Origin: Actinomycetales bacterium
GTDB taxonomy: Bacteria; Actinomycetota; Actinomycetes; JAJZTN01
Length of the DNA stretch: 64,000 nucleotides
Reading direction: 5' to 3'
Assembly: GCA_051960855.1 (NCBI GenBank)
Contig: JBQCDV010000207.1
Location: 146-64,145 of the forward strand
The notes under the pieces are model-generated. The model worked only from the letters and a program-made list of their open reading frames with translations, was not told the origin of the DNA and did not search any database. This document shows positions 1 through 20,847 of the stretch, piece by piece. The stretch's first letter is position 1. Each line of letters begins with the position of its first letter. The position numbers were made by a program, and so were the translations under genes.

Positions 1-3
1 CGC

Positions 4-522
4 TTGTTCGTCGGCCGCACAACGTTCGTCAGCGCGCGCGACGAGCTCGTGCAGTCACTCGGGGCCCATCTCGAGGCCGAGGAGGTGGTGGTGCACCGGG
101 CCGCTGCCGCGAAGGGTGCCCCGTCTGAGCTGCTGGTGTCGGCACGCGAGATAGCCGAGGAGCTGCGCCAGGCGCTCAGTGAGCTCGCCACGGTGCCGGA
201 ACGCCACCAGGGCGGCGACCTCGACACACGCCTGCTCGGCCTGCTGAAGAGCCACATCGAGGTCGAGGACGAGATCGGGGAGACGTTGGCGGGCGGCTTG
301 CCGGAGGCGATGCGCCGCCTGGGAGGTGACTACGGCAGGGCTCGAGACGCGGCAGCCGCTCGACTCCGCCGCACGACGGTCGTGCCGCGGCGGCTCGACC
401 GACCCCGGACAGAGCTCTACGAGATGGCGCGCAGGGTCGGGGTCGAGGGCCGCACCCGCATGAGCCGCGAGCAGCTCATCCAGGCGCTGCTCGACCACGA
501 GGCGCTCAAGGTCGCTCGCTAG
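4..522 (+). CDS. Rho termination factor N-terminal domain-containing protein (probably 5'-truncated at window edge)
   Basis: C-terminal motif ELYEMARRVGVEGRTRMSREQLIQAL resembles the Rho_N domain signature. The ORF begins at the window edge, so the called start is not reliable. Confidence 0.45.
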   Translation: MFVGRTTFVSARDELVQSLGAHLEAEEVVVHRAAAAKGAPSELLVSAREIAEELRQALSELATVPERHQGGDLDTRLLGLLKSHIEVEDEIGETLAGGLPEAMRRLGGDYGRARDAAAARLRRTTVVPRRLDRPRTELYEMARRVGVEGRTRMSREQLIQALLDHEALKVAR

Positions 523-884
523 CGCCCCATTTCTGGCGCCTCCACCCCACCGCCAACGCATGGGCGGCGGCCCCGCGGCGGCTGAGCTCCATGAGCGCTG
601 TCGCGCCGCAGTCGGCGGCCCCACCCAACTGCTTGCCGTGTGGCGCCCACTTCCACCCCTAGGTGTTTGTTGCGCTTAAACGTGGAGAAGTGTCCGATTC
701 GTCAGGGAGGTGCTGAAGACAGCGGCACACCAGGGTTGGGGCTCGCAAAGCCCCCAGGCCCGACCACCCGGGCTGGCCCGCCCGGCACCCGCCCCGCACC
801 CGCGGGGGCTGGGACACGAGTTCCACACGAGCCGCCGGAGGTCGCGATGACCGCACGATCTGCCTGTCAGGCAGGACTCTCGCG

Positions 885-2525
885 GTGAAGGTCCTCGGCA
901 TCAACTCGCTGTTCCACGACCCGTCGGCTGCCCTCGTCATCGACGGAGTGACGGTCGCGGCGGCGGAAGAGGAGCGCTTCTCCCGTCGCAAGCACGGCCA
1001 CCGTCCCGTCCCCTTCGCGGCGTGGGAGCTGCCGGAGCTCGCCGCCCGCTGGTGCCTCGAGAGCGCCGGCCTCGCTCCGTCCGATCTCGACGTCGTCGCC
1101 TACTCCTACGATCCCTCGCTCGCGGTGGCAGCGGACGACCTCGGCCTCAACGACCCCTGGGACTGGCTGCGGCAGCTGTACGCCGAGCGGGCGGCCGGGT
1201 TCCTCGCCTCGGCCCTGCCCGGCCTCGACCCAGCCCAGGTACGCCACGTGCCCCACCACGTCGCCCATGCCGCGAGCGCCGGCCTGGCCGGCCTCGGTGG
1301 CGACGGAGCGGTCCTCGTGCTGGACGGCCGCGGCGAGCAGGCGAGCTCCTTGCTGGGGCACTACCGCGACGGCAAGCTCGACGTGCTGGCCACACAGCCT
1401 CTCCCCCACAGTGTCGGCTTCCTGTTCGAGGACCTCACCGAGCACCTCGGCTTCCTGCGCTCCAGCGACGAGTACAAGGTGATGGCCCTCGCCAGCCACG
1501 GCACGCCGCGCTTCCTCGACCTCTTCCGTGAGCGCCTCACGACCGACGGCTCCGGCGGCTTCCGCGTCAACCGACTGCATGGCTCAGACCTCGGCGAGCT
1601 CGTGCCGGCACGCCACCCGGACGAGCCATGGCAGCAGGCCCACGCCGACCTCGCGGCCAGCGCCCAGCGCCGGCTGGAGGAGCTGCTGCTCGAGCTGGGC
1701 GGGTGGCTGCACGAGCAGACCGGCGCCCTCCGGGTAGGGCTCGCCGGCGGCGTCGCCCTCAACTGCGTCGCCAACTCGGTGCTCGCCACTCGCGGCCCCT
1801 TCGAGCAGGTCTGGGTGCAACCGGCCGCCGGCGATGCTGGCACTGCGCTCGGCGCGGCCCTCAGCGTCGTCGCTGAGCACGGCCAGCCGGTGCAGCCCTT
1901 CACCGGAGCCGACCTCGGTCGCAGTTGGGACGACGGAGCGCTCGAGACGGAGCTTCGGCGCAGCGGCCTCGCGTGGCAGCGTCCACGGGACATCGCCGAG
2001 GCGTGTGCCGAGGTCCTAGCCGCCGACGGCATCGTGGCCTGGTACCAGGGACGCTCCGAGTTCGGCCCGCGCGCGCTGGGACACCGCAGCCTGCTGGCCC
2101 ATCCGGGACCCGCCGTGAACCTCGACCGCCTCAACGACATCAAGGGACGTGAGTCCTTCCGCCCCGTGGCGCCGATGGTGCTGGAGGAGCGGGCGGGCGA
2201 CATCTTCAGCGGGCCGCTTCCCAGCCCCTACATGCTCTTCGTGCACGACGTCGCGCCGGAGTGGCGCGACCGTGTAGCCGCTGTCGTCCATGTCGACGGC
2301 ACTGCCCGTGTGCAGACAGTCGGAGCCTCGGAACCCTTGCTACGCAAGCTTCTCGGCGCGTTCGAGACTCGGACCGGACTTCCAGTCCTCGTCAACACCA
2401 GCCTCAACACGGCGGGACGTCCCATGGTCGACTCACCGCAGGACGCTCTCGAGTGCTTCGGTTCTGCCCCGATCGACGCCCTCGCCCTCGGTCCCTTCCT
2501 CGTGCGCAAGGCGGCGGTGGCATGA
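885..2525 (+). CDS. Carbamoyltransferase, NodU/CmcH family
   Basis: The N-terminus (MKVLGINSLFHDPSAALV...) and the protein as a whole fit NodU/CmcH O-carbamoyltransferases. The stop overlaps the next gene's ATG (ATGA at 2522-2525). Confidence 0.8.
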   Translation: MKVLGINSLFHDPSAALVIDGVTVAAAEEERFSRRKHGHRPVPFAAWELPELAARWCLESAGLAPSDLDVVAYSYDPSLAVAADDLGLNDPWDWLRQLYAERAAGFLASALPGLDPAQVRHVPHHVAHAASAGLAGLGGDGAVLVLDGRGEQASSLLGHYRDGKLDVLATQPLPHSVGFLFEDLTEHLGFLRSSDEYKVMALASHGTPRFLDLFRERLTTDGSGGFRVNRLHGSDLGELVPARHPDEPWQQAHADLAASAQRRLEELLLELGGWLHEQTGALRVGLAGGVALNCVANSVLATRGPFEQVWVQPAAGDAGTALGAALSVVAEHGQPVQPFTGADLGRSWDDGALETELRRSGLAWQRPRDIAEACAEVLAADGIVAWYQGRSEFGPRALGHRSLLAHPGPAVNLDRLNDIKGRESFRPVAPMVLEERAGDIFSGPLPSPYMLFVHDVAPEWRDRVAAVVHVDGTARVQTVGASEPLLRKLLGAFETRTGLPVLVNTSLNTAGRPMVDSPQDALECFGSAPIDALALGPFLVRKAAVA

Positions 2526-4054
2526 CGAACGCCGCTGCGTCCCTCACCTACGTCGTCGTCATTCCCGCGACGCGCCCCCCGCTCGTCACTCGTGTGCTCG
2601 CATCCCTGACGGCGCAGGGAGTTCCGGCCTCGCAGGTGGTCGTGGTCGATGACAGCGCGGACGCGTCGGTGGGCGCCGCGCTGGCGCGGAGCGAGGTCAA
2701 CGTCGTTCGAGGGCCTCGGCGCGGACCTGCGGCCGCCCGGAACACGGGGTGGCGGGAGGCGACGAAGGCGGGGCGGGTTGACTGGGTCGTCTTCCTCGAC
2801 GACGACGTCATCCCTTCCCCGCGCTGGGCCACGGAGCTGGTAGCGGACCTCGCCGACGCTGCCGGGGATGTTGCGGGGATCACTGCTCGCCTTAGCGTCC
2901 CACTGACGACAAGCCGGCCTAACGACTGGGAGCGGCAGACGCAGGCCCTCGAGACGGCTTCGTGGATCACCGCTGATATGGCCTACCGGGTCGAGGTGCT
3001 TCTGGCGACGGGCGGCTTCGACGAGCGATTCCCGCGTGCCTTCCGAGAGGACAGCGACCTCGCCCTGCGCGTGCTCGCGGCCGGTTGGCGCGTCACGCAG
3101 GGTCGCCGGGAGACCGCTCACCCGGTCCGGCCCGCCCCCTGGCACGTGAGCCTGTCGCGTCAGGCCGGAAACGCCGACAACGCCCTGATGCGTCGCCTGC
3201 ATGGCCGGGACTGGCGGTCGCTCTCCGACAACCCATCCAGTCCGCTCCCCGCGTACGGCCTCACGATCGCCGCTCTGGCTGTCGGTGCAGCCGGCGCAGC
3301 CACGGCCGCTGCCTCCCCTGACCGCCGCAGGCTGGCGGGCACCGTTGCTGCGCTGGGGCTGGCGTGGTGGCTGCAGCGCACCGCCGGCTTCGCCTGGCGG
3401 CGGATCGCTCCCGGCCCTCGCACCGCAACCGATATCGCCGCCATGGCTGTCACCAGCGCGCTGATCCCGCCGCTGGCGCTCTGGCACCGGCTGCGCGGTG
3501 AGCTGCGACACCGCCACGTCCAGCCCGCGCTGCCCCCCGTGCGCGCCGTGCTCTTCGACAAGGACGGCACGCTCGTCCATGACGTCCCCTACAACGGCGA
3601 CCCGGAGCTGGTGCAGCCGGTGGCGGATGCCCACCGGAGCGTCCAGCGGCTGCGCGAGGCAGGACTGCGACTCGGCTTGGTTTCCAACCAGTCCGGCATC
3701 GCCCGGGGCCTGCTCGACCGCTCCCAGGTGGAGGCCGTGCTGGCCCGCACCGCCGAGCTCGTCGGACCCTTCGACACGGTGCACATCTGCCCCCACGACG
3801 ACTCCGCCGGCTGCGCGTGCCGTAAGCCGAAGCCGGGGATGGTGCTCGACGCTGCGCGGGCGCTGGGAGTGCCACCGCAGCAGTGCGTGGTCGTCGGCGA
3901 CATCGGCGCCGATGTCGGAGCGGCACTGGCTGCCGGGGCACGTGCGGTGCTCGTGCCGACCGCTGCTACCCGTCGCGAGGAGAGGCAGTCCGCCCCCCAC
4001 CGTGCGGACACCCTCACCGAGGCTGTCGACCTCATCCTGGGAGGTCGGGTATGA
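2522..4054 (+). CDS. gmhB: Bifunctional GT2 glycosyltransferase / D-glycero-D-manno-heptose 1,7-bisphosphate phosphatase (GmhB-like HAD-IIIA) fusion
   Basis: The N-terminal half is GT2-like (VVVIPATRP...VVVVDDSADA, DxD in VVFLDDDV). It is followed by hydrophobic helices. The C-terminal half has the HAD motif FDKDGTLV and the GmhB zinc motif CPHDDSAGCACRKP. The start ATG (MTNAAAS) overlaps the previous stop. Confidence 0.75.
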   Translation: MTNAAASLTYVVVIPATRPPLVTRVLASLTAQGVPASQVVVVDDSADASVGAALARSEVNVVRGPRRGPAAARNTGWREATKAGRVDWVVFLDDDVIPSPRWATELVADLADAAGDVAGITARLSVPLTTSRPNDWERQTQALETASWITADMAYRVEVLLATGGFDERFPRAFREDSDLALRVLAAGWRVTQGRRETAHPVRPAPWHVSLSRQAGNADNALMRRLHGRDWRSLSDNPSSPLPAYGLTIAALAVGAAGAATAAASPDRRRLAGTVAALGLAWWLQRTAGFAWRRIAPGPRTATDIAAMAVTSALIPPLALWHRLRGELRHRHVQPALPPVRAVLFDKDGTLVHDVPYNGDPELVQPVADAHRSVQRLREAGLRLGLVSNQSGIARGLLDRSQVEAVLARTAELVGPFDTVHICPHDDSAGCACRKPKPGMVLDAARALGVPPQQCVVVGDIGADVGAALAAGARAVLVPTAATRREERQSAPHRADTLTEAVDLILGGRV

Positions 4055-5202
4055 GCCGGCCACCCTCGACCCACTCCTCGAGCCGACCCCATGTCCTCGT
4101 AGTCCGGCTCGACAGCGCCGGCGACGTGCTGCTCACGGGTCCGGCGATCCGTGCCGTCGCGGCGGGCGCCCGCCGGGTGACCGCCCTCGTCGGTCCGGGT
4201 GGCGCGGCTGCGGCGGCCCTCCTTCCGGGCGTCGACGAGACCGTGGTCTGGGAGTGCCCCTGGATCGTGGGAGACCCGGAGGCGGTCGCCCCCGACGACA
4301 TCGGCGACATCGTGAGCCGGCTGTCGGTCCTCGACTGCGACGAAGCCGTCATCTTCACGTCCTTCCACCAGTCGCCACTGCCGACCGCGCTCGTGCTGCG
4401 GCTGGCCGGCGTCCCGCGGATCAGCGCGACGAGCGTCGACTACCCCGGCTCCCTGCTCGACGTACGACACCGCCCGCAGCCCACCGACGGACCGCACGAG
4501 GTGGAGTTCTGCCTGTCGACGGCGCGCGCCGCCGGCTTCGAGCTCCCGAACGACGATGCTGGCCTGCTCGCCGTCCGCGGGCCGCTGCCCGACGTGACTC
4601 ACCTGCTCGCCGACCCGAGCGGGACCGACGCTCCTCGCGTCGCCCTCCACGTCGGCGCCAGCGTCCCGGCACGCAGCCCCGAACCGGCCTCCCTCGCGCA
4701 GGCGGCGACGCTGCTGGCCGGCCGCGGCTGGGACGTCGTGGTCACGGGCGGCCCTGCCGAGATCGCACTGGCCGCCGAGGTCGCCGGGGAGGCAGCCCGG
4801 TCGCTCGCGGGCCGCACGAGCCTCGGCGAGCTGGCCGCCGTCCTGGCGCAGTCAGATGTCGTCGTGTCGGGCAACACGGGGCCCGCGCACCTGGCCGCAG
4901 CCGTCGGGACACCGGTGGTGTCGCTGTTCGCCCCCGTCGTGCCCCTCGAACGGTGGCGCCCGTGGGGCGTCCCGACCGTCGTTCTCGGCGACCTCCACGC
5001 GTCGTGCCGCGACACCCGGTCCCGGGTCTGCCCGATACCCGGCCACCCCTGTCTGTCCGGCGTCAGCGGCAGCCAGATCGCAGCGGCGGTCGAGTCGCTG
5101 CTCTCCCCGTCCTCGCTCGGCGACGCGTCGTCAGCGTCCTCAGGGTCGTCCCCCACCACCGCGGTCCCGGCGACCGCGCCATCCATGGAAGGAGCACGGT
5201 GA
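4051..5202 (+). CDS. Glycosyltransferase family 9 (ADP-heptose:acceptor heptosyltransferase-like)
   Basis: GT9 hallmarks are present: HVLVVRLDSAGDVLLTGPAIRAV near the N-terminus and SGNTGPAHLAAAVGTPVVSLF near the C-terminus. ATGA overlap at 4051-4054. Confidence 0.75.
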   Translation: MSRPPSTHSSSRPHVLVVRLDSAGDVLLTGPAIRAVAAGARRVTALVGPGGAAAAALLPGVDETVVWECPWIVGDPEAVAPDDIGDIVSRLSVLDCDEAVIFTSFHQSPLPTALVLRLAGVPRISATSVDYPGSLLDVRHRPQPTDGPHEVEFCLSTARAAGFELPNDDAGLLAVRGPLPDVTHLLADPSGTDAPRVALHVGASVPARSPEPASLAQAATLLAGRGWDVVVTGGPAEIALAAEVAGEAARSLAGRTSLGELAAVLAQSDVVVSGNTGPAHLAAAVGTPVVSLFAPVVPLERWRPWGVPTVVLGDLHASCRDTRSRVCPIPGHPCLSGVSGSQIAAAVESLLSPSSLGDASSASSGSSPTTAVPATAPSMEGAR

Positions 5203-6161
5203 GGATCCTCGTCTGGCACGTCCACGGCTCATGGACGACCGCCTTCGTCTCCGGGTCGCACACGTACCTGCTGCCGACCCTGCCCGAGCGCGGCGCCTGG
5301 GGCGGTGGGCGGTCCACCTCCTGGGACTGGCCGGCCTCCGCGGTCGAGGTCCCCGCCGACCAGCTGGCGACGACCGACGTGGACGTCGTGATCCTGCAGC
5401 GGCCGGAGGAGCTCGAGCTCGCGGAGCGCTGGCTGGGACGCCGGCTGGGCCGTGAGATCCCCGCGGTCTACGTCGAGCACAACACCCCCAAGGGCGACGT
5501 CCCCTCGACCCGACACCCGCTGGCGGACCGGTCCGACATCCCGATCGCGCACGTGACGTGGTTCAACGCCGCGATGTGGGACAACGGCCGCGCTCCCGTC
5601 ACCGTCATCGAGCACGGGATCCCCGATCCGGGCGCGCGCTGGACCGGCAACGACGTTCGGGTCGCCTGCTCCATCAACGAGCCCATCCGACGCACCCGCG
5701 TCGCAGGCACCGACCTGCTGCCGCGGTTTGCCGAGATCGCTCCGGTGGACGTGTACGGCATCGGCACGGCCGGCCTCGGCGAGCACCTCGGGCTGCCGCC
5801 GGACCGGCTCGGAGAGTTCGACGTCCAGCAGGACGAGCTCTACCGGCAGCTGGCCGAGCACCGTGTCTACCTGCACCCGTACCGGTGGACCAGCCTGGGG
5901 CTCTCCCTGCTGGAGGCGATGCACCTGGGCATGCCGGTGGTCGTGCTCGGCACGACGGAGGCCTACGAAGCGGTGCCGCCCGAGGCCGGCGTCTGCACCA
6001 CGAAGGTGCCGGACCTGCTGGATGCAGTCCGCACCTACTGCAAGGACCACGACGCCGCGCGGGACGCGGGTCGTGCCGCCCGAGAGGCGGTGCTGCGCCG
6101 CTACGGCCTGGCCCGCTTCCTCTCCGACTGGGACCGACTACTCCTGGAGGTGACCCGATGA
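5199..6161 (+). CDS. Glycosyltransferase (GT4/GT1-like)
   Basis: A GTG start overlaps the upstream stop (GTGA at 5199-5202). The C-terminal half resembles retaining GT-B glycosyltransferases (EAMHLGMPVVV...). Confidence 0.6.
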   Translation: MRILVWHVHGSWTTAFVSGSHTYLLPTLPERGAWGGGRSTSWDWPASAVEVPADQLATTDVDVVILQRPEELELAERWLGRRLGREIPAVYVEHNTPKGDVPSTRHPLADRSDIPIAHVTWFNAAMWDNGRAPVTVIEHGIPDPGARWTGNDVRVACSINEPIRRTRVAGTDLLPRFAEIAPVDVYGIGTAGLGEHLGLPPDRLGEFDVQQDELYRQLAEHRVYLHPYRWTSLGLSLLEAMHLGMPVVVLGTTEAYEAVPPEAGVCTTKVPDLLDAVRTYCKDHDAARDAGRAAREAVLRRYGLARFLSDWDRLLLEVTR

Positions 6162-7402
6162 GGATCGCGATGGTGTCAGAGCACGCCAGCCCGCTAGCTG
6201 TGCTGGGCGGCGTGGACGCCGGCGGCCAGAACGTCCACGTGGCCGACCTGTCACGCGCCCTCGCCCGCGCGGGTCACGAGGTGACGGTGTACACGCGCCG
6301 CGACGATGAGGCGTTGGCCGACAAGGTCAAGCTGTGCAAGGGCGTCACCGTCGAGCACGTGACCGCGGGACCGGCGGCCGCGCTGCCGAAGGACGAGCTG
6401 CTGCCCTACATGGACGAGTTCGGCGACGAGCTCGCGCGCCGCTGGTCGAAGAAGGCGCCGGACCTGGTGCACACCCACTTCTGGATGTCGGGGCTGGCCG
6501 GCCTGCGGGCACGGGAGCACACCGGCGTCCCGGTCGTGCACACCTATCACGCGCTGGGCCTGACCAAGCGTCGGCACCAAGGCGCCGCGGACACCAGTCC
6601 CGTCGAGCGTGTGGACCTGGAGGCACACCTCGCGCGGTCGGTTGACCACATCGTGGCGACCGCCACCGAGGAGGCCTTCGAGCTGCGGCGGATGGGCGCC
6701 CGGCGCGACCAGATCACGATCGTGCCGTGCGGCGTCGACGTCGAGAGGTTCACACCGCACGGTCCCGTCGCGCCCCGCGGCAGCAGTCCGCGCATCCTGT
6801 CACTCGGGCGTCTGGTCGAGCGCAAAGGCGTCGACATGATCATCACCGCACTGCGGATGGTGCCCGACGCCGAGCTGGTGATCGCCGGTGGCCCCGACCA
6901 GCACGAGCTGGACCACGACGCGGACGCCCAACGTCTGATGGCCGCTGCGGCCGCTGCCGGTGTCGCCGGGCGCGTGCACCTGGTGGGCCGGGTCAGCCGA
7001 GAGGAGGCGCCGGCGCTGATCCGCTCCGCCGACGTCGTCGTCTGCGTGCCCTGGTACGAGCCCTTCGGCATCGTCCCGCTCGAGGCCATGGCCTGCGCCC
7101 GCCCCGTCGTCGCGGCGGCCGTGGGCGGTCTCGCGGACACGGTGGTCAACGGTGTGACCGGCGTCCTCGTCCCCCCCAAGCGACCGCAGGAGCTCGCGAT
7201 GGTGCTCCGGCGCCTGCTCGCCGACGACATGGAGCGCGAGGGGATGGGTCAGGCGGGGCTCGACCGCGTGCTCGCCCGCTACTCGTGGGAGCGCGTGGCC
7301 CACGAGACCGAGGCCGTCTACCAGGGCCTCGGCCTGGCCGAACGACGCCTCACCGCGACGGTCGACCTGCGGGAGGCCGTTCCGGCTGGGGCCGCCCGAT
7401 GA
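6158..7402 (+). CDS. Glycosyltransferase family 4 (MshA-like GT-B)
   Basis: GT4 sequence features are present: MRIAMVSEHASPL...GGQNVHVADLSRALARAGHEVTVYT and a C-terminal EPFGIVPLEAMACARPVVAAAVGGLADTV. The start ATG overlaps the previous stop. Confidence 0.8.
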   Translation: MRIAMVSEHASPLAVLGGVDAGGQNVHVADLSRALARAGHEVTVYTRRDDEALADKVKLCKGVTVEHVTAGPAAALPKDELLPYMDEFGDELARRWSKKAPDLVHTHFWMSGLAGLRAREHTGVPVVHTYHALGLTKRRHQGAADTSPVERVDLEAHLARSVDHIVATATEEAFELRRMGARRDQITIVPCGVDVERFTPHGPVAPRGSSPRILSLGRLVERKGVDMIITALRMVPDAELVIAGGPDQHELDHDADAQRLMAAAAAAGVAGRVHLVGRVSREEAPALIRSADVVVCVPWYEPFGIVPLEAMACARPVVAAAVGGLADTVVNGVTGVLVPPKRPQELAMVLRRLLADDMEREGMGQAGLDRVLARYSWERVAHETEAVYQGLGLAERRLTATVDLREAVPAGAAR

Positions 7403-8106
7403 GCCGGCACCCGCGCGGCGTGCGGGCCGGCGGCTGCGGTGACGGCGGCGAAGGCCCCCCGCGGGCGTTCGCGCGCCCCGGCCAGCACGCTCGTGATCTG
7501 GCCGCGGTGCTGGAGCGCTCGGCGTCTCAGCTCGACCTGCTCGCCGCTCGCGGCGCCGTGCTGGCCGCCCGGCTGCGCGATGGCGCCCGGCTCATCGCCG
7601 CCGGCAACGGCGGCAGTGCGGCGGAGGCCCAGCACCTCACCGCCGAGCTGGTGGGCCGGCTGCGCGACGACCGCGCCCCGATGTCCGCGATCGCGCTGTG
7701 CGCGGAGACCTCCAGCCTCACCGCGATCGTCAACGACTACGGCTCCGATGCGATGTTCGCCCGGCAGGTCCTGGCCCACGGGCGACCCGGCGACGTCGTC
7801 CTGCTGCTCTCGACGTCCGGCTCCAGCAGCAACCTGCTGTCGGCCGCCGACGCCGCGAAGAGCGCCGGCATCGAGGTGTGGTCCTTCACCGGACCGGACC
7901 CCAACCCGCTGGCCGCCATGTCCGACTGGTCGCTGTGCATCGACGCCCCCGACTCGGCCACCATCCAGGAGGTTCATCTCGTCGCGGTGCACGCGCTGTG
8001 CGCCGCGGTCGACGTCGAGCTCGGCGTGGCACCGTGGGCCGGTGAGGCAGCCGCAACCCCGCAGGTCGTCGACCTGCGCGAGCCGGCCTCCGAGGTCGCC
8101 CGGTGA
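7399..8106 (+). CDS. gmhA: D-sedoheptulose-7-phosphate isomerase GmhA (SIS domain)
   Basis: SIS/GmhA motifs are present: IAAGNGGSAAEAQHLTAELVGR, DVVLLLSTSGSSSNLL. ATGA overlap with the previous gene. Confidence 0.75.
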   Translation: MSRHPRGVRAGGCGDGGEGPPRAFARPGQHARDLAAVLERSASQLDLLAARGAVLAARLRDGARLIAAGNGGSAAEAQHLTAELVGRLRDDRAPMSAIALCAETSSLTAIVNDYGSDAMFARQVLAHGRPGDVVLLLSTSGSSSNLLSAADAAKSAGIEVWSFTGPDPNPLAAMSDWSLCIDAPDSATIQEVHLVAVHALCAAVDVELGVAPWAGEAAATPQVVDLREPASEVAR

Positions 8107-9770: not shown

Positions 9771-10449
9771 CACCCGCACCGTGCTCGTGACAGGCGGGTC
9801 CTCGGGCCTGGGAGCAGCGGTCGTCGACGCGCTCCTGCAGCGTGGCGACCGCCCCTGCGTGATCGACATCAACCCCCCGAAGGCCGACGTCCCCTTCCGG
9901 CAGGTCGACCTGTCGGACACCCGCGCGGCCGAGGCCGCGGTGGAGGAGCTCGCCGACGAGCTCGGCGGCCTGAACGGCGTTGTCGCCGCGGCGGGCGTCG
10001 ACACGCCCGGCAAGCTCGACGAGGTGCCCGCGAAGGAGTGGGAGCGGATCGTCACCATCGACCTGCTCGCGGTGGCGGCCGTGTCGCGGGCGGCCCTGCC
10101 GCACCTGAAGCAGAGCAGCGGCCGGCTGGTCACGGTGGCTTCCACGCTCGGCGTGAAGGCGGTCAGCGACGCCACCGCCTACTGCGCCGCCAAGTTCGGC
10201 GTGGTCGGATTCACCCGCGCGCTCGCAGCGGAGACCGCCGGTGAGATCGGCGTCACGCTGCTCATCCCCGGCGGCATGAGCACCGCCTTCTTCGACGGGC
10301 GGACCGAGCAGTACAAGCCCGGCCCGGATGCGAAGCTGAACGACCCCTCACACGTCGCCGCGGCGATCCTCTTCGCCCTCGACCAGCCCGCCGGGTGCGA
10401 GCTGCGCGAGATGGTCGTGGCAGCGGCCACCGAGCCCTCGTGGCCGTGA
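9760..10449 (+). CDS. SDR family oxidoreductase
   Basis: Rossmann motif TGGSSGLGAAV and catalytic YCAAK are present. The gene overlaps the hldE 3' end by 11 nt. Confidence 0.75.
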   Translation: MSADTRTVLVTGGSSGLGAAVVDALLQRGDRPCVIDINPPKADVPFRQVDLSDTRAAEAAVEELADELGGLNGVVAAAGVDTPGKLDEVPAKEWERIVTIDLLAVAAVSRAALPHLKQSSGRLVTVASTLGVKAVSDATAYCAAKFGVVGFTRALAAETAGEIGVTLLIPGGMSTAFFDGRTEQYKPGPDAKLNDPSHVAAAILFALDQPAGCELREMVVAAATEPSWP

Positions 10450-10456
10450 GTCGCTC

Positions 10457-11452
10457 GTGACCGAGGCTGCGCGCCGCCCGCTGCCCACCCAGACGGGTGC
10501 GGCAGCGGGCGGCCCTCCGCCGGGGCCGAGCACCGTGCTGGTGCTGCGCGCGCTCGGCATGGGTGACCTGCTCACGGGTGTCCCCGCGCTGCGCGCCGTG
10601 CGCGCCCACTACCCGCGCGCTCGCCTGCTGCTCGCCGCCCCGACGTGGCTGGCACCGCTCGTGCGCCTGGTGGGCTGCGTCGACGAGATCGTTCCGCACG
10701 ACGGGGTCGCAGCCCTGCCCTGGCCGTGGGACCCGCCGGAGGTAGCGGTGAACCTCCACGGCCGGGGGCCGCAGAGCCACCGGCTCCTGCAGGCGGTGCG
10801 CGCCGGCCGGATGCTGGCCTTCGCCAGTCCGGACGCGGACTTCACGGACGGCCCGCAGTGGCTGCCCGATGAGCACGAGGTCGAGCGCTGGTGCCGCATG
10901 CTGGCCGCGTACGACATCGCCAGCGACCCCGACGACCTGCTCATTCAGCGGCCTGGGGCCGCCCCCGACCAGCGCGGCGTCGTCGTCATCCATCCCGGTG
11001 CCAGCGTCGCGTCGCGACGGTGGTCGGCGGCCAGGTTCGGTGTGGTGGCTGCAGATCTGGCCGCCCGCGGACATCGCGTCGTTGTGACGGGAAGTCCGGC
11101 GGAGGAGGCGCTGGCGCGCCAGGTGGTGACAGCGGCGAAGCTGCCCCGGGCCGCCCTGCTCGCCGGCCGGCTCAGCCTCCTGCAACTGGCCTCCGTCGTC
11201 AGTGGCGCAGCCCTCGTCATCTCCTCCGACACCGGCATCGCCCACCTTGCCACCGCACTGCGGACCCCGTCGGTCACCGTCTTCGGGCCGGTCCCGCCGT
11301 CGCAGTGGGGAGCACGCATCGACACCGCGATCCATCGAGCGCTGTGGGTGCCGGACGCCGACGGGGTCGGCCAGCTCGCCCGCGTGCAGCCCAGCTACGT
11401 CGTTCGGGAAGCTCTCGCTCTGCTGCGCAGCCGTCGCCTGGCGACGCGGTAA
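10457..11452 (+). CDS. Glycosyltransferase family 9 (heptosyltransferase-like), paralogue 2
   Basis: GT9 motifs are present: VLVLRALGMGDLLTGVPALRAV and a C-terminal SSDTGIAHLATALRTPSVTVFGP. A GTG start is assumed. Confidence 0.75.
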   Translation: MTEAARRPLPTQTGAAAGGPPPGPSTVLVLRALGMGDLLTGVPALRAVRAHYPRARLLLAAPTWLAPLVRLVGCVDEIVPHDGVAALPWPWDPPEVAVNLHGRGPQSHRLLQAVRAGRMLAFASPDADFTDGPQWLPDEHEVERWCRMLAAYDIASDPDDLLIQRPGAAPDQRGVVVIHPGASVASRRWSAARFGVVAADLAARGHRVVVTGSPAEEALARQVVTAAKLPRAALLAGRLSLLQLASVVSGAALVISSDTGIAHLATALRTPSVTVFGPVPPSQWGARIDTAIHRALWVPDADGVGQLARVQPSYVVREALALLRSRRLATR

Positions 11453-11458
11453 CGGGCG

Positions 11459-12438
<980 letters not shown>

Positions 12439-12442
<4 letters not shown>

Positions 12443-13920
12443 GAGCGGCTCGGGAGCGGCTCGAGGTGGACCACCTTGGTCCGCGACAGCTCGTCGAGCA
12501 GCTCGGGCCCGTAGCCGAAGCCGCGTCCGCTCGCGCCGCGCGGGTGGGCGGCGCCGCCGGGGGCTCCCCCGAAGACGGCGTTGATCTTGACGGTACCGAC
12601 GGGCAGGTCCCGCCACGCCTGCTGCGCGTGAGCGAGGTCCGGGGTCAGCACGGTCGCCGCCAGGCCGTAGGGGCTGTCGGCGGCCACCTCCAGCGCCTCG
12701 TCGAAGGAGTCGACGACGAGGACCGGAGCCACGGGCCCGAAGTTCTCCTCGCGCCAGATCCGCATGTCGGGCCGGACGTCGGCGAGCACAGTGGGCGGGT
12801 AGAACGAACCGTCGCCCTCGGGGACCTCGCCGCCGCAGACCACGCGGGCGCCGGCCTCGACGGCCTCGCGGACCTGCGCGTGCACCTCGTCGCGGTGGCG
12901 CCGGTCGACGAGCGGTCCCATGAACGCGCCCTCGTCGTGCTGGGCGCCGACCGTGACGGCCCGGGCGCGCTGCTCGAGGGCGTCGAGGAAGGCGTCGGCG
13001 ACGTCGCGCAGCACGACCACGCGCTCGACGCCGGTGCAGAGCTGCCCGGCGTTGATGAAGCCGCCGAGGACGACCTGATCGGCGGCCCAGCCGGCGTCGA
13101 CGCCGCTGTGCACGACGAGGGCGTCCGCGCCGCCGTTTTCGACGATGCAGTGCGCGCCCGTCTGCGCGGTCGCCGCGGCGATGGCGCGCCCGGCGCGCGT
13201 GGAGCCGACGTGGGCGACCGCGCGGACGCGAGAGTCGGCGACCAGTGCGGCGCCGGTCTCACCCGCGCCGAAGACGCAGGTGAAGACGCCGTCCGGCAGC
13301 TCCTCGGCGAAGACCTCGGCGAGCAGCGCCGCCGACCACGGGGAGCGCTCAGAGGGCTTGAAGACGACGGTGTTGCCCATGACGAGGGCGGCGGCGAGCA
13401 GGCCGGCGGGGACCGCGACCGGGTCGTTCCACGGGGTGATGACGGCGACGACCCCGTGCGGCTCGAGCACCATCAGGTCGGTCGCGTCCCAGTTGCCATT
13501 GAGGCTGCGACCGCGGTGCACCGGACCCAGCTCGGAGTACTGCCGGATGGTGGAGATCCCGGCCCGGACGCCGTCGAGCGACATTCCGACGGGACGCCCC
13601 ATCTCCGCCGAGGCGGCCTCGGCGAGCCGGTCGGCGCGCTCCTCGAGCCGGTCGGCGATGCGCGCCAGGGTCGCTCCCCGGGCTCCGGCCGGCGTCTGCG
13701 CCCAGCTCCGCCGGGCGGCCTCAGCCGCATCTACTGCGGCGGTCACCGTGGCGTGCGACCCGACCGGGAAGTCCACGACGGGGACCCCGGTCGCGGGGTC
13801 GACGACGGTCAGCACCGGCTCGTCCGAGGCCGGGACCCCGAGGTGGCTCAGGTGGACGGTGACCTCGGACCGGGAGGACCCGGCGGTCGGGACGGCAGTG
13901 GGCTCGGACAGATCGAGCAC
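12439..13920 (-). CDS. Aldehyde dehydrogenase family protein
   Basis: ALDH fold features are present, including the catalytic Cys context GQLCTGVERVVV and a glycine-rich cofactor region. The protein is about 490 aa. Confidence 0.8.
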
Positions 13921-14026
13921 GAACGACTCCTCGTCGGTGGGCGGCTGACGCAGCGCTTCTTCACGTTTACGTCCGCCTCCTGCCCCGAAGTGCCCGCCTC
14001 AACCGGGTCAGCCCCGCAAATCCCCC

Positions 14027-14908
14027 TTACCGTGCCAGGGCGTCGGCCACCTCCGGTGAGCCGTAGAGGTCGCCTACCTCGGCGAGCGCGTCGAGCCCCA
14101 GCACGTCGTACGCCTCGGCACGGCGGTCCCGCACCGTCGTCGGCGCCTCCTGGTGGAAGGCCAAGCTCGGCAGGATCCCCGCGCCCCCGCGCTGCTCCAT
14201 CACGGCCAGTTGGGCCACGACGTCCTCGCCGCAGTGCACGGGCGGCAGCTGGGGCCAGAAGCCGAACGCCCCGGCCTCCAACAGCGCCTGCCGGTCGTAC
14301 AGGACGCAGCCTCCGACCCAGGCCACCCGGTAGGCCACGTACCCGTCGGCTCCGTCGGGCGAGAGCGCGAGCCGCTGCGCCAGGTGCAGGGGGTTCGCCG
14401 CATTGTGCAGCCGCCAACGCTGCCAGGCCGGCGTCGAGCGCCGGACCCGCTCGGGTCGTACCCGGTCCTCCCAGGGCTCGAAGTCCGCCAGCTCCTCCGG
14501 CCGCACGTCGTCTCGGTAGCTCAAGCCGACGACGGGCATGCCGACGAAGCCGCAACCGAGCTCGACCAGTGCCTGCCGCATCAGCCCGAGCGCAGCGGGT
14601 GCGAGCAAGACGTCGTCGTCGAGCAGCAGCAACTCGCGGCGGGACGTCGCCTCCACCAGGTGCTGCCGCTGCTCGGCGAGGCCGCGGCGCGGCAGGTGCC
14701 GGTGCAGGTCGACCGCCACACCGAGGTGCTCCAGCAGCCGAAGGGCGGCCACCACGGCCGGCTCCGCTGCTGCCGGCGACTCGCCCTGGTCGCTGACCAC
14801 GACCCGCGCGGGCCGCACCCGCTGGCCGGCGAGGGACGTCAGCGTCGCCGCCAGGCAGGCGGGACGGTCGGCTGTGGGTATGGCGACCTCGAGGTCCGTC
14901 CGCGTCAC
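14027..14908 (-). CDS. Glycosyltransferase family 2
   Basis: GT2-like N-terminus (LEVAIPTADRPACLAATLTSLAGQ...VVVSDQGESP) and a DxD-like LLLLDDDV. The start overlaps the upstream hldE2 stop. Confidence 0.65.
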   Translation of the reverse strand: MTRTDLEVAIPTADRPACLAATLTSLAGQRVRPARVVVSDQGESPAAAEPAVVAALRLLEHLGVAVDLHRHLPRRGLAEQRQHLVEATSRRELLLLDDDVLLAPAALGLMRQALVELGCGFVGMPVVGLSYRDDVRPEELADFEPWEDRVRPERVRRSTPAWQRWRLHNAANPLHLAQRLALSPDGADGYVAYRVAWVGGCVLYDRQALLEAGAFGFWPQLPPVHCGEDVVAQLAVMEQRGGAGILPSLAFHQEAPTTVRDRRAEAYDVLGLDALAEVGDLYGSPEVADALAR

Positions 14909-16425
14909 CGGCCACCCTCCGGGAGCTCACCGAGAGGCGCGCGCAGGTCGATCGTCACCGAGGCGTCCAACGGCCCGTCCAGGCTGCGGATCCGGTCCAG
15001 CAGCCTGGTCGTCGAGTGATCCGCGACGAAGTCGACGAAGCGCACCGCCCCGCCGTACGACTCGACGACGGGAGCCTCCGGCAGGGTCTCGGGTGTGTAG
15101 TCGCCGCCCTTGGCGTAGACGTCGGGCTGCAGTCTCGCGATCAGCTCCGCGGGGCTGTCTTCGTCGAAGACGACGAGGTGGTCGACGCATGACAGCGCGG
15201 CGAGCACGCGCAGCCGGTCGCCGAGCGGGTTGACCGGTCGGTCTGGCCCCTTGAGGCGGCGCACGCTCTCGTCGCTGTTGACCGCCACGACGAGCACGTC
15301 GCCGAGCCGACGGGCACCGTCCAGCATCGCGACGTGACCGGAGTGCAGGACGTCGAAGCAGCCGTTGGTGAAGACCACCCGCCTCCCAGCGGCCCGGTGC
15401 TCGGCCACCACATCGACGAGGACGTCCGGCGCCGCGACGGGCTCGAGGATGCCGATCTGCTCGAGCAGGGCCGACTGCGTGCAGGTGGCCGTCCCCGACT
15501 TGCGAACGACGACGCCCGCTGCCGCCACCGCCGCCTCCAGGGCGACGCTCGGGTCGGCCCCCTGGGCCAGGCTCAGGGTGAGCGCCGCGGTGAAGGAGTC
15601 ACCGGCACCGCAGGTGTCGGGATGGGACACCGGGTGGGCATACGCACGGTGAGGTCGCTGCTGGCGGGCGATGAAGACCGCTCCCTCGGAGTCGAGGGTG
15701 ACGGCGGCCGACCGCGCGCACCACTCGTCGAGCAGCGTCTCCCCGTGCTGGGACAACCATTGCGTGCGGTCGACGCCCTCGTCGGCCGGCAGCGTCAGCA
15801 CTGCCTCGTCCCAGTTCGGCGCCACCACGTCGGGGCACAGGTCACGCCACCGGCGCGGGTCGTGCGCGTCGAGGACCACCAGTGGACGACCCTCCCGAAC
15901 CAGCGCTCCAAGCCGGGGGCGCAGGTCGGCGTCGAGCAGCCCGGTGGCGTAGTCGCACACGACCAGGACCGGGACGCGACGGAGCAGCTCGCGTGCGGCG
16001 GCCAGCAGCTGGCCCACCGTCTCCTCGCTGGCCGCGCCGTCTCCCAGCCCCTCGTCGAAGCGGGCCAGCATCGTGCCATCGGCGACCAGCCGCTGTTTCG
16101 CGACCGTGTGTCGGCCGGCTTCGACGATGACACCGCTGACGTCGACCCCGGCCTCCGCGCAGCGCCGCACCAGACGCTCGCCGTCCGCGTCGTCACCGAC
16201 GACGCTGACGAGGTGCACGCGCGCGCCCAGGGCGGCGAGGTTCGCGGCGGCGTTCGCTGCTCCCCCGGGCTCCTCGCGGCGTCGCTTCACGGTCAGGGCC
16301 GGCACGGGTGCCTCGCGGCACAAGCGTGTCGCGGAGCCCTCCAGCCAGGTGTCCAACATCGCGTCGCCGAGCACGACGACCTCGGTGCCACTGAAGCGGG
16401 CGACGACATCCGTCAGGCTGTCCAC
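14905..16425 (-). CDS. hldE: Bifunctional heptose 7-phosphate kinase / heptose 1-phosphate adenylyltransferase HldE, second paralogue
   Basis: Same two-domain architecture as the 8103-9770 gene (VVVLGDAMLD...CGAGDSF, TNGCFDVLHSGHVAMLDGARRLGD...VNSDESVRRLKGPDRP). Confidence 0.85.
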   Translation of the reverse strand: MDSLTDVVARFSGTEVVVLGDAMLDTWLEGSATRLCREAPVPALTVKRRREEPGGAANAAANLAALGARVHLVSVVGDDADGERLVRRCAEAGVDVSGVIVEAGRHTVAKQRLVADGTMLARFDEGLGDGAASEETVGQLLAAARELLRRVPVLVVCDYATGLLDADLRPRLGALVREGRPLVVLDAHDPRRWRDLCPDVVAPNWDEAVLTLPADEGVDRTQWLSQHGETLLDEWCARSAAVTLDSEGAVFIARQQRPHRAYAHPVSHPDTCGAGDSFTAALTLSLAQGADPSVALEAAVAAAGVVVRKSGTATCTQSALLEQIGILEPVAAPDVLVDVVAEHRAAGRRVVFTNGCFDVLHSGHVAMLDGARRLGDVLVVAVNSDESVRRLKGPDRPVNPLGDRLRVLAALSCVDHLVVFDEDSPAELIARLQPDVYAKGGDYTPETLPEAPVVESYGGAVRFVDFVADHSTTRLLDRIRSLDGPLDASVTIDLRAPLGELPEGGR

Positions 16426-17615
16426 ACACGGTCCTCTCGAGGAAGTTCGTCGCGGGAGGCGGCCCCGCGGGCAAGATGGGCGAGGGTGGCCTCGACGACC
16501 TCACCGACCGGGACGTCGAGGCAGGCGGTGTCGCCGTAGGGGCAGCGGAACTGGTGGCACGGCGAGCACGAGGTCGGCACGCGCAGCAGGTTCGCGGGGA
16601 CGTCGCGCGGCGCCATGTGCTCGATGGGCTCGGTGCCACCCCAGGTGACGACGACCGGAGTGCCGAGCGCGTCGGCGACGTGGAGTCCGCCGGAGTTGTT
16701 GACGACGGCGACGTCGACCCGCGCGAGCAGCGCCACCCACGCGGGAATGGGCAGCCCGGCGAGGACGGCAGCGGCATCGCCCGCCACGTCGTCGAGCAGG
16801 GGCTGCTCCTTCGCCGACCCGACGACCACGACGCAGGCGTGCTCGGAGAGGGCGGCGACCGATCGCCGGAACCGCTCGGGAGCCCAGCGTCTGGCTGGGG
16901 CGCTTGCGCCGGGTGCCACCGCGACCGTCGTTGCGCCGAGGGTGACACCGCGAGAGCGCAGTTCCCGCTCGAGCTGCACCTGCGCCTGCCCGGGCACCGC
17001 CAGCTGCAGCTCGCGGCTCTCGCAGGGCACGCCGAGACTGGCGAGCAGGAACAGCTGCCGGTCCACCTGATGCGTCAGGTAGTCCGGCGGTGAGACCGGG
17101 TGGGTCAAGACGCCGCCGCCGAAGTCGCGGCTCAGCCCGGCACGCACCGGGATCTCGGCCAGCAGGCCCACCAGGGCAGGCGGCAGCGGCGACTGTGAGA
17201 ACGACGTCAGCACGACCATCGCGTCGTAGCGGCGGCCGGCCACCTCGGCCACGAGCGATTCGAACGACGCCCGCGCACGCTGCGCCGTTCGGGCCGGGTC
17301 CGCCTCCGCGGGGGATGCGTCCTGCCAGACCGGGGACGCGACGAGCAGGTCGTCGAGACCCGGCAGCAGCGGCGCGATCGCCGCGCCGGCGGGCGAGCAG
17401 AGCAGGTCGATCCGGGCGTGCGGCGCTGCGGCTCGCACCGCCCGGACCGCCGGGCCCGTCATGACGACGTCACCGAGGTTGTCCGCGCGCACCAGCAGGA
17501 TCGCGCCCATGCCCGCCCAGTCGCCGGCCGTGAGGACCGGTCCCTGGTCGACCGCCGGGTGACGGCGGGGACGGGGCCGCCGGAGCAGGTCCGGGGCAGG
17601 AGGCGCTGGTGTCAC
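16413..17615 (-). CDS. Glycosyltransferase family 9 (heptosyltransferase-like), paralogue 3
   Basis: GT9 motifs are present (ILLVRADNLGDVVMTGPAVRAV, NNSGGLHVADALGTPVVV). The start could be GTG at 17615 or the internal ATG at 17510. Confidence 0.7.
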   Translation of the reverse strand: MTPAPPAPDLLRRPRPRRHPAVDQGPVLTAGDWAGMGAILLVRADNLGDVVMTGPAVRAVRAAAPHARIDLLCSPAGAAIAPLLPGLDDLLVASPVWQDASPAEADPARTAQRARASFESLVAEVAGRRYDAMVVLTSFSQSPLPPALVGLLAEIPVRAGLSRDFGGGVLTHPVSPPDYLTHQVDRQLFLLASLGVPCESRELQLAVPGQAQVQLERELRSRGVTLGATTVAVAPGASAPARRWAPERFRRSVAALSEHACVVVVGSAKEQPLLDDVAGDAAAVLAGLPIPAWVALLARVDVAVVNNSGGLHVADALGTPVVVTWGGTEPIEHMAPRDVPANLLRVPTSCSPCHQFRCPYGDTACLDVPVGEVVEATLAHLARGAASRDELPREDRVWTA

Positions 17616-17705
17616 TCAGCGCCCCTCCCCTGGTGAAGATCCGGCAAACGCGCCAGCGACGCGAGCGGAGGGCGGGCGGCCGTGCGGGGGCCGAGCGGCG
17701 CGGCC

Positions 17706-20726: not shown

Positions 20727-20847
20727 GCGCGCGCACTCCTGTCAGCGGCCGACCTGTCACCGTCCACCCGACAACTTACCGATCAAGCGTTCGGTTCCCC
20801 CTGCCCGCCGCGGGTGGTCCAGCGCGCCCCGACCCGCAGGCAGCAGG

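Follow-up and report, generated by a model that had tools for sequence, protein, structure and literature searches.

Gene content and organization

The 64,000-nucleotide stretch of actinomycete DNA analysed here, called the window below, holds at positions 885-17615 a locus of heptose-nucleotide and glycosyltransferase genes related to the cwg operon of Streptomyces. Its 14 genes form two convergent operons, nine genes on the plus strand (885-11452) and five on the minus strand (17615-11459), the stop codons of which lie 6 bp apart (Table 1). Raw lists of open reading frames (ORFs) are full of shadow ORFs because the window has a G+C content of 72-75%; genes were called from a frame plot of G+C by codon position (GC3) together with start codons preceded by purine-rich tracts. 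Most adjoining genes share 4-13 bp, a sign of translational coupling; the exceptions are a gap of 7 bp between g8 and g9 and one of 106 bp between g12 and g11. All 14 proteins were compared with Pfam, NCBIfam and PDB. A first-pass annotation of this DNA had named the two operons and an inventory of domains; the frame plot and start codons bear out the operons, and each of the domains found its match in the profile and structure searches. That annotation had also conceded that its reading would fall if the pathway genes were decayed. All 14 genes are uninterrupted, the catalytic motifs of the HldE, HAD and GmhA proteins are intact, and the three GT9 proteins keep the catalytic Asp near the N terminus.

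Table 1. Genes and upstream region of the heptose locus, in window coordinates.
Feature	Position	Strand	Assignment	Supporting match
Upstream region	523..884	+	Intergenic leader/promoter region of the plus-strand operon (candidate)	AT-rich island at about 655-720
g1	885..2525	+	O-carbamoyltransferase, NodU/CmcH/TobZ family, cwgB homologue	Carbam_trans_N and Carbam_trans_C
g2	2522..4054	+	Fusion of a soluble GT2 (residues about 10-250; cwgC) and a GmhB-like HAD-IIIA phosphatase (about 336-500; cwgD)	Pfam, NCBIfam
g3	4051..5202	+	GT9 "a" (cwgE)	PF01075, 80.6 bits
g4	5199..6161	+	Divergent GT-B protein with GT1/GT4-like C-terminal half (cwgF)	Weak Pfam matches, residues 205-306
g5	6158..7402	+	Full GT4 resembling sucrose-phosphate synthase and MshA (cwgG)	Glyco_transf_4 and Glycos_transf_1
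g6	7399..8106	+	Sedoheptulose-7-phosphate isomerase GmhA (cwgH)	SIS_2 domain
g7	8103..9770	+	Bifunctional heptose-7-phosphate kinase/heptose-1-phosphate nucleotidyltransferase HldE1 (cwgI)	PfkB and CTP_transf_like
g8	9760..10449	+	Classical short-chain dehydrogenase/reductase (SDR)	adh_short, 131 bits
g9	10457..11452	+	GT9 "b" (cwgJ)	PF01075, 99.9 bits; canonical GD...R-W...DTG motifs
g10	11459..12442	-	UDP-glucuronate decarboxylase (UDP-xylose synthase, UXS) type SDR, cwgA homologue	UXS1 match
g11	12439..13920	-	Aldehyde dehydrogenase (PF00171), generic	Aldedh, 432 bits
g12	14027..14908	-	Soluble GT2, third gene of the add-on triad	Pfam Glycos_transf_2
g13	14905..16425	-	Second bifunctional HldE (HldE2), full-length	HldE model, 342.5 bits
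g14	16413..17615	-	GT9 "c", first gene of the minus-strand operon	PF01075, 71.3 bits

Relationship to the cwg operon

Hong, Paget and Buttner reportedly described the sigma-E-dependent cwg operon of Streptomyces coelicolor in 2002. The operon consists of the 12 genes SCO6179-SCO6190 (cwgA-L), is a sigma-E target induced by vancomycin, and carries the label "putative cell wall glycan" (Tran et al. 2019, PMC6767563). In its published annotation cwgA is a nucleotide sugar dehydratase; cwgB, C, D and E are a transferase, a transferase, a dehydratase and a transferase; cwgF (SCO6184) is not listed; and cwgG, H, I and J are a transferase, a phosphoheptose isomerase, a bifunctional synthase/transferase and a transferase. 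Elsewhere in print, cwgE is described as a heptosyl transferase belonging to the cell wall glycan operon that vancomycin induces. The "dehydratase" label given to cwgD is the usual mis-annotation of HisB-like HAD proteins.

The cluster of Streptomyces fulvorobeus (L086; fetched loci are numbered in this way below) has 12 genes in the order UXS-like, carbamoyltransferase, GT2-like, HAD, GT9, GT4-like, GT4, SIS, HldE, GT9, GT2, GT2. Ten of these match window genes by tblastn at 46-70% identity, nine of them in the same order; the tenth, the UXS homologue, sits in the minus-strand operon of the window. By these comparisons, which run through the S. fulvorobeus genome and the published order of annotations and not through the S. 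coelicolor sequences themselves, the core of the locus is collinear with the S. coelicolor operon. In both clusters all of the enzymes are soluble and no exporter is linked. The window differs in its fused GT2-HAD gene, in an SDR placed between HldE and the second GT9, and in a cwgA homologue that lies convergent downstream instead of first in the operon; it lacks the two GT2 genes cwgK and cwgL, and gains an aldehyde dehydrogenase and a GT9-HldE-GT2 triad (g14-g13-g12). A pyruvyl transferase of the S. fulvorobeus cluster and a GT2 upstream of the L087 cluster were also searched for in the window and are absent.

Conservation extends well beyond Streptomyces. The g9 protein is 99% identical to one from a metagenome-assembled genome (MAG) labelled "Actinomycetes bacterium"; metagenomic relatives follow at 84% and 63%, and then proteins of about 60% identity in seemingly every Micromonospora, where the locus has the same gene order as the window core. 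A scan of species-representative genomes by an alignment of g9 relatives gave at least 591 confirmed matches. The best 80 of these 591 loci come from Micromonospora, Plantactinospora, Salinispora, Actinoplanes, Actinomadura, Blastococcus, Nocardia and MAGs; in those with enough fetched flank to judge, tblastn recovers g1-g9 in order, at 43-73% identity. The first-pass annotation had proposed an undescribed system; at the level of genes that cannot stand, as the core is collinear with the cwg operon, and actinobacterial clusters that pair heptose-nucleotide synthetases with several glycosyltransferases are also discussed in print (PMC9978623). Probably the locus is best read as the form that the actinobacterial cwg operon takes in this lineage, with a second heptose module added and with the chemistry proposed further below.

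Carbamoyltransferase and oxidoreductases

The first gene of the plus-strand operon, g1, is 70% identical to the cwg-cluster gene of S. fulvorobeus, and Intrasporangium, Dermatophilaceae, Nocardioides and many Streptomyces have proteins that share 69-73% identity with it. Among solved structures it matches decarbamoylnovobiocin carbamoyltransferase (9S2T) at 304 bits and TobZ at about 280 bits.

Could the locus then be a specialised-metabolite cluster of the septacidin or hygromycin B kind? The closest relatives of g1 include the natural-product enzymes NovN, TobZ and GdmN, and the septacidin (sep) and hygromycin B clusters likewise use sedoheptulose-7-phosphate and ADP-heptose in an actinomycete; going by titles in reference lists, ADP-heptose is the heptose source of both compounds in Streptomyces. 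However, the signature enzymes of septacidin biosynthesis are the FAD oxidase SepI, the TIM-barrel epimerase SepJ, the VOC epimerase SepA and the aminotransferase SepG (PMC9978623), and counterparts of all four are absent among the 14 genes. The locus also lacks acylation genes and any aminocyclitol, nonribosomal peptide or polyketide synthase, regulator, resistance or transporter gene. Its gene order is shared by several actinomycete families and hundreds of species, as is typical of conserved physiological clusters and not of specialised-metabolite ones. A septacidin-type or hygromycin-type pathway is rejected on these grounds, and a natural-product role of this kind in general is highly improbable.

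The UXS-type protein g10, whose start overlaps the g11 stop, scores 281 bits against human UXS1 (E 1e-82); it shares 53% identity with the first gene of the Streptomyces cluster and 55-58% with the convergent gene in Blastococcus (L075) and in the two nearest fetched relatives of the window (L087 and L088). The place of the UXS gene varies: Streptomyces has it at the head of the operon, the window, Blastococcus, L087 and L088 have it downstream in convergent orientation, and in Actinomadura it is co-directional with the cluster. In L087 and L088 a UDP-glucose dehydrogenase (Ugd) gene lies divergent from the cluster and the UXS gene convergent with it. With both enzymes beside the cluster in the two nearest relatives, conversion of UDP-glucuronate to UDP-xylose is a credible side pathway; Ugd was searched for in the window and is absent. 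The SDR g8 has orthologues, 60-73% identical, between HldE and GT9b in most loci, and is missing from Streptomyces L086 and Blastococcus L075. The aldehyde dehydrogenase g11 reaches no NCBIfam equivalog cutoff; homologues of 54-63% identity adjoin the cluster in Actinoplanes, Plantactinospora, Micromonospora, Rugosimonospora and one MAG. Like the UXS homologue, the aldehyde dehydrogenase recurs beside the cluster but is not always there.

Heptose-nucleotide enzymes

The enzymes expected to make the sugar donor are g6, g7, g13 and the phosphatase domain of g2. The isomerase g6 scores 150.7 bits against the NCBIfam gmhA model (cutoff 209.45) and 130 bits against the solved GmhA 5I01, and it conserves the GNGGSAA-AQH active-site motif. 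HldE1 (g7) scores 249.6 bits against the HldE model, with its domain II at 178.3 bits, just under the cutoff of 181.5; the corresponding domain of HldE2 (g13), at 198.9 bits, is above that cutoff. Both proteins have the HxGH and DTCGAGD (DTxGAGD) motifs. In HldE1 a low-complexity insert rich in Gln, Pro, Ala and Gly (GTQGGQPAQPAQGAQEPPGD...) breaks the kinase domain at residues ~68-100, and because of it Pfam and NCBIfam align only residues ~133-329 of that domain.

The two HldE proteins differ in a motif that reportedly decides which nucleotide is used: HldE1 ends LPGRSTT, and HldE2 has ADHSTT at the same place (GRSTT versus DHSTT). The GRSTT form is kept in most cwg-type HldE orthologues of the fetched loci, typically as YLDGRSTT. 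According to the excerpt of PMC11573728 that summarises the 2024 Science work on the STTR5 motif, the arginine in this motif marks those heptose nucleotidyltransferases that can use CTP and UTP besides ATP, and HldE1 shares it with the enzymes described there as forming CDP- and UDP-heptose. Since HldE1 carries GRSTT, the description of the locus as "ADP-heptose based", with which the annotation had begun, may be too narrow.

The phosphatase domain of g2 has its best PDB matches among heptose 1,7-bisphosphate phosphatases (GmhB), and its HAD motifs DxDGT, SNQSG, CxCRKPxPGM and GDxxxD are all present, including the Zn site; against the GmhB equivalog it scores 113.8 bits, below the cutoff of 178. 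Its fusion partner varies between lineages: in the window, L087 and L088 it is joined to the GT2, whereas Micromonospora has it on the first GT9 and Streptomyces as a gene of its own. The variants lie at 2522-4054 in the window, 3250-4866 in L002, 11632-14316 in L086, 11629-13152 in L087 and 11635-13122 in L088. Fusion of a GmhB-like phosphatase to differing transferases points to close functional coupling between the phosphatase and the transferases.

An HldD-type heptose 6-epimerase is missing from the locus, where the sole extended SDR, g10, scores 50.9 bits against a cutoff of 274.6. The sugar therefore probably stays in the D,D form. A complete ADP-heptose pathway had been claimed at first pass: GmhA, two HldE proteins and a GmhB-like domain are indeed there, but HldD is not, and the nucleotide carrier need not be ADP only.

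A link between heptose nucleotides and several glycosyltransferases has a precedent in actinobacteria. As quoted in PMC9978623, Tang et al. (Sci China Life Sci 2022) found actinobacterial synthetases of nucleoside diphosphate (NDP)-heptose to be conserved and proposed that the adjacent clusters of multiple glycosyltransferases make heptose-containing oligosaccharides. The clusters in that quotation resemble the window in tying heptose-nucleotide synthesis to several glycosyltransferase genes; they encode a tridomain isomerase/kinase/nucleotidyltransferase protein, whereas g6 and g7 of the window are separate ORFs that overlap by 4 bp.

Glycosyltransferases

Three GT9 proteins are encoded in the locus (PF01075; gathering cutoff 22 bits). 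Alignments to PDB entries, among them g9 to WaaF (1PSW) and WaaC (2GT1), show the Asp of the N-terminal G-D motif to be conserved in g3, g9 and g14. We take this residue to be the catalytic Asp13 of Escherichia coli WaaC, and the donor-site Asp to be its Asp261. At the Asp261 position g9 (SDTG) and its orthologues (GDTG) keep Asp. The same position holds Asn in g3 (GNTGPAH, kept in ~70 orthologues) and in g14 and its orthologues (NNSGG). Conserved across both sets of orthologues, the Asn is a feature of these lineages and not a sign of decay; the loss of donor-binding residues that had been raised as grounds against the reading is not borne out, though the Asn may bear on the choice of donor. 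None of the three is an orthologue of WaaC, WaaF or WaaQ by the equivalog models, all scoring far below the cutoffs (g14, 89.2 versus 134.6; g9, 84.5 versus 185.3).

Two GT4-like enzymes had been counted in the locus. One of them, g5, is a full GT4; the other, g4, matches GT1/GT4 models in its C-terminal half only. Orthologues of g4, 53-64% identical, occupy the same position in nearly all loci, and the family is small, with 143 clusters (50% identity) at E<=1e-30 among 1.84 billion representatives, many of them fragments. Its only NCBIfam match is N-acetylglucosamine (GlcNAc)-phosphatidylglycerol synthase, at 33 bits. The g5 protein scores 247.7 bits against the NCBIfam MshA model (cutoff 462.5), 236 bits against 6KIH (deposited as Tll1590 protein), 174 bits against 3C4Q ("predicted glycosyltransferases") and about 63 bits against PimA/PimB. 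The first of these structures is presumably a cyanobacterial sucrose-phosphate synthase and the second a corynebacterial MshA; the NCBIfam model points to MshA independently of them.

This inventory invites comparison with the inner-core machinery of Gram-negative lipopolysaccharide (LPS), namely GmhA/HldE/GmhB, WaaC/WaaF/WaaQ, WaaG and WapO. The NDP-heptose families and the GT9 fold are the same, the catalytic Asp is kept, g9 keeps the (K/R)xW and DTG motifs, and the pairing of GT9 with a carbamoyltransferase and a GT4 recalls the Pseudomonas core. In contrast to LPS machinery, the locus has no genes for 3-deoxy-D-manno-octulosonic acid (Kdo), lipid A or HldD, its GT9 proteins fall far short of the WaaC/WaaF/WaaQ models, two of the three have Asn for Asp261, and all homologues found place the organism among the actinomycetes. 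The reading as a true LPS core is rejected.

A related idea is that the product is a membrane glycolipid or lipoglycan, in which a carbamoyl-heptose oligosaccharide like the LPS inner core, anchored to a phospholipid or polyprenyl lipid, would be put together on the cytoplasmic side of the membrane and leave the cell by unlinked machinery. WaaG is a GT4-class enzyme. The enzyme set mirrors that of the Pseudomonas inner core, which has two GT9 proteins, the carbamoyltransferase WapO and a WaaG-type glycosyltransferase, WaaG being a core enzyme according to the excerpted part of PMC10579960. Moreover, g5 resembles PimA/PimB, which glycosylate phosphatidylinositol, and the single NCBIfam match of g4 is to the GlcNAc-phosphatidylglycerol synthase. 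These likenesses to lipid-acting GT4 enzymes are weak, however; genes for Kdo, lipid A or a lipid anchor are absent from the window, the proteins showed no motif for membrane association, and a heptose-containing lipoglycan from actinomycetes is not reported in the literature searched. A lipid-anchored product is thus a doubtful alternative to the cwg reading, under which the same glycosyltransferases would build a short oligosaccharide.

The add-on triad

The minus-strand genes g14-g13-g12 (GT9c, HldE2 and GT2) are absent from all of the best 80 of the 591 cwg-type loci. Homologues of g14, 44-60% identical, occur in Pseudonocardia, Streptoalloteichus, Phytohabitans and Carbonactinospora. In Pseudonocardia cypriaca (L084) the three genes have the same order inside a larger heptose neighbourhood; in Phytohabitans (L085) a GT9c homologue lies near a homologous HldE-GT2 pair on the opposite strand. 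A second organism from the same sequencing run (L089, Logan SRR31761991 contig, 2122-5692) has the triad standing alone, at 60/74/65% identity, between a DEAD/RecQ-type helicase gene and a membrane-protein gene. The GT2 g12 shares 55-65% identity with the GT2 found next after HldE in L084, L085 and L089, and no similarity was found between it and cwgK or cwgL of Streptomyces. As the triad recurs elsewhere, once alone with unrelated flanks, it is a separate module that has been joined here to a cwg-type cluster, and it is the only part of the locus that behaves like an add-on. The Pseudonocardia neighbourhood (L084, 1-16568) holds five GT9 genes, HldE, a kinase-only PfkB, GT2, an HAD phosphatase, an SDR, GT4 and GmhA, so that the heptose clusters of Pseudonocardiales can far exceed the cwg type in size.

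Upstream region

In the AT-rich island of the region upstream of g1 lie an AAC-N18-CGTCA element at 679-704, 206 nucleotides upstream of g1, and the sequence GGAGAAGTG at 685-693. The window holds eight AAC..CGTC motifs where 5.2 are expected, so they are no commoner than chance. A scan of positions 1-18000 found neither a sigma-70 promoter nor an intrinsic terminator, and an Rfam search of positions 1-22000 returned no family, only a spurious microRNA match.

Micromonosporaceae clusters share a motif within the 150 nucleotides upstream of the carbamoyltransferase gene (L002, L008, L012, L015, L016, L027, L032, L071, L074, L076, L080, L081 and L083). It reads GGAGAAGTCGATGATCTA..GGTTAGG, then 12-15 nucleotides, then GGGTA(C/G)GGA, and ends ~12-20 nucleotides before the ATG. 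By its letters it resembles a GTT-N-GGGTA promoter of the sigma-B/sigma-F type, preceded by a possible operator. Of this motif the window retains only GGAGAAGTG.

Proposed product and alternatives

Besides the gene inventory and the operon structure, the analysis supports what the first-pass annotation had in essence proposed, a heptose-containing and probably carbamoylated glycoconjugate in an organism free of LPS. By family assignments and intact motifs, the GmhA/HldE/GmhB-like set would provide an NDP-heptose donor. A second donor, UDP-xylose, could be made by g10 from UDP-glucuronate that an unlinked dehydrogenase would supply. The soluble cytoplasmic GT2, GT9a, GT4-like protein, SPS/MshA-like GT4 and GT9b may then assemble a short oligosaccharide that contains heptose, on an acceptor for which the locus has no gene. 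In Pseudomonas, a 7-O-carbamoyl heptose in the LPS core is attributed to the putative carbamoyltransferase WapO (PMC8005017); by this precedent g1 would O-carbamoylate the oligosaccharide. Possible tasks for the SDR and the aldehyde dehydrogenase are oxidation of a sugar or provision of the acceptor, and the triad would add an NDP-heptose supply of its own and two more transfers. Where does the product act? By analogy with Streptomyces the cell envelope is the most likely place, as the Streptomyces operon is induced by envelope stress through sigma-E and vancomycin, and because of that link an envelope glycan is ranked first.

Several observations weigh against this reading. No convincing transmembrane segment or signal peptide is seen in any of the 14 proteins, and none of the 14 genes encodes a flippase, ABC exporter, polyprenyl-phosphate priming transferase or LytR-CpsA-Psr (LCP) ligase. 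Priming transferase, flippase, exporter and ligase are likewise absent from the Streptomyces, Micromonospora and L087 and L088 clusters. Hence "cell wall" is an assumption inherited from the name used in the literature, which goes back to the regulation of the Streptomyces operon and not to chemistry. Most of the locus enzymes fall short of the NCBIfam equivalog cutoffs, Asn stands at the WaaC Asp261 position in two of the three GT9 proteins, the S. coelicolor operon is reached through an intermediate genome, and S. fulvorobeus translations of cwgK and cwgL have no match in the window at E<=1e-3. A sigma-E or other extracytoplasmic function (ECF) promoter of the AAC..CGTCT type could not be established upstream of g1, where the one candidate motif is at chance frequency and not conserved upstream of orthologous clusters. 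Finally, no chemistry for the cwg product is reported in the literature searched up to 2026, where the operon is still called putative or predicted; that literature gave no link between cwg and heptose chemistry, and a search for heptose in actinomycete wall glycopolymers brought no relevant result. The Streptomyces surface glycopolymers of the umbrella-toxin receptor paper were looked at as a candidate and set aside, as they are teichuronic and teichoic acids with no heptose or cwg link.

The same features raise the possibility of a soluble cytoplasmic product, a heptose oligosaccharide or glycoside that would serve as a stress or osmoprotective solute, or an intracellular polysaccharide like the mycobacterial methylglucose lipopolysaccharide (MGLP) and methylmannose polysaccharide (MMP). 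In this scheme g5 would act on a small phosphorylated acceptor and the HAD domain would then dephosphorylate the product. All 14 proteins are predicted to be soluble, and export, priming and ligation genes are missing here as in the Streptomyces, Micromonospora and L087/L088 clusters. The structures closest to g5 presumably belong to enzymes that glycosylate sugar phosphates or inositol phosphates and work together with a dedicated phosphatase, and the closest solved relatives of g1 carbamoylate small molecules. The cwg operon is reported to be induced by vancomycin, salt and cold, with cwgA induced by salt and cold in S. coelicolor, and a heptosyltransferase is salt-induced in Frankia. Against this, the HAD domain is most like GmhB, which the heptose pathway requires anyway, known GT9 enzymes use membrane-bound acceptors, and vancomycin induction via sigma-E points to the envelope; we also know of no heptose-containing solute from actinomycetes. 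A soluble product is unlikely on balance, if slightly less so than a lipid-anchored one, and the envelope glycan of the cwg reading is preferred to both, though both carry real weight.

Within the cwg reading, a bolder proposal builds on the two pairs of motifs. Cwg-type clusters could be the missing physiological users of the newly discovered CDP- and UDP-heptoses, with HldE1 and HldE2 supplying different NDP-heptose pools that feed Asp-type and Asn-type GT9 enzymes and so building an LPS-core-like carbamoylated heptose glycoconjugate in monoderm actinomycetes. This is conjecture, and we would be surprised to see it hold in full.

Flanking genes and the insertion question

The locus lies, as first annotated and as the Pfam scan bears out, between a hemerythrin/Rho_N gene (4-522) and a UPF0182 gene (17706-20726). 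The block at 17706-45129 contains UPF0182, a PDZ/Lon-type protease, MoaE, a Zincin_2 peptidase, UvrD2 with HRDC, NudC, an exo/endonuclease-phosphatase, a nucleoside phosphorylase, two AdnAB-like helicase-nucleases and a MoeZ-type ThiF-rhodanese protein, the part at 26.3-31.8 kb being left out of this list. We take the genes beyond UPF0182 to be a conserved actinobacterial block, going by mycobacterial gene order. Between UPF0182 and the PDZ/Lon protease gene there is a clear plus-strand coding signal at ~20750-21438 that has no Pfam match; since the ORF as listed starts at 20302, in overlap with UPF0182, the gene probably begins further downstream.

This setting had been read as an accessory insertion, and the strongest form of that idea would make the whole 17-kb locus a recently acquired island beside the UPF0182 core block. 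The locus does abut conserved genes (UPF0182, PDZ/Lon, MoaE, UvrD2, NudC, AdnAB and MoeZ). Its chromosomal position differs from that in the nearest fetched relatives, L087 and L088 (~72% protein identity), where the flanks of the cluster are different, no genome closer than these having been found, and the triad is found elsewhere with unrelated flanks. Yet composition is even, G+C being 0.72-0.76 in the locus and 0.70-0.76 in most of the rest of the window, with a dip to 0.67-0.69 in the UPF0182 region and comparable GC3. The window has no tRNA gene, and Pfam finds no integrase or transposase domain in the 14 genes and six flanking ORFs (4-522 and 17.7-26.3 kb), a scan that did not extend to flanking repeats. 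The core, moreover, is conserved in a vertical-looking manner across Actinomycetes. The accessory-insertion claim thus finds no positive support, and a recent island is improbable; only the triad behaves like an added module.

Significance

The cwg operon was among the first two sigma-E envelope-stress targets described in Streptomyces, and more than 20 years on its product is not identified in the literature searched. What is known here is the cwg-type gene cluster, and what is particular to the window is the joined GT9-HldE-GT2 module. The window comes from the MAG of an uncultured organism; its value is comparative, and it does not make the product question easier to test. The comparison offers several handles for work in culturable relatives: phosphatase fusions specific to lineages, linkage to UXS and Ugd, an optional SDR and aldehyde dehydrogenase, and a detachable triad. 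Two sequence signatures can be added to them, GRSTT versus DHSTT in HldE and Asp versus Asn in GT9. The window shows the cluster to be a widely conserved, modular heptose system of actinobacteria and no peculiarity of Streptomyces.

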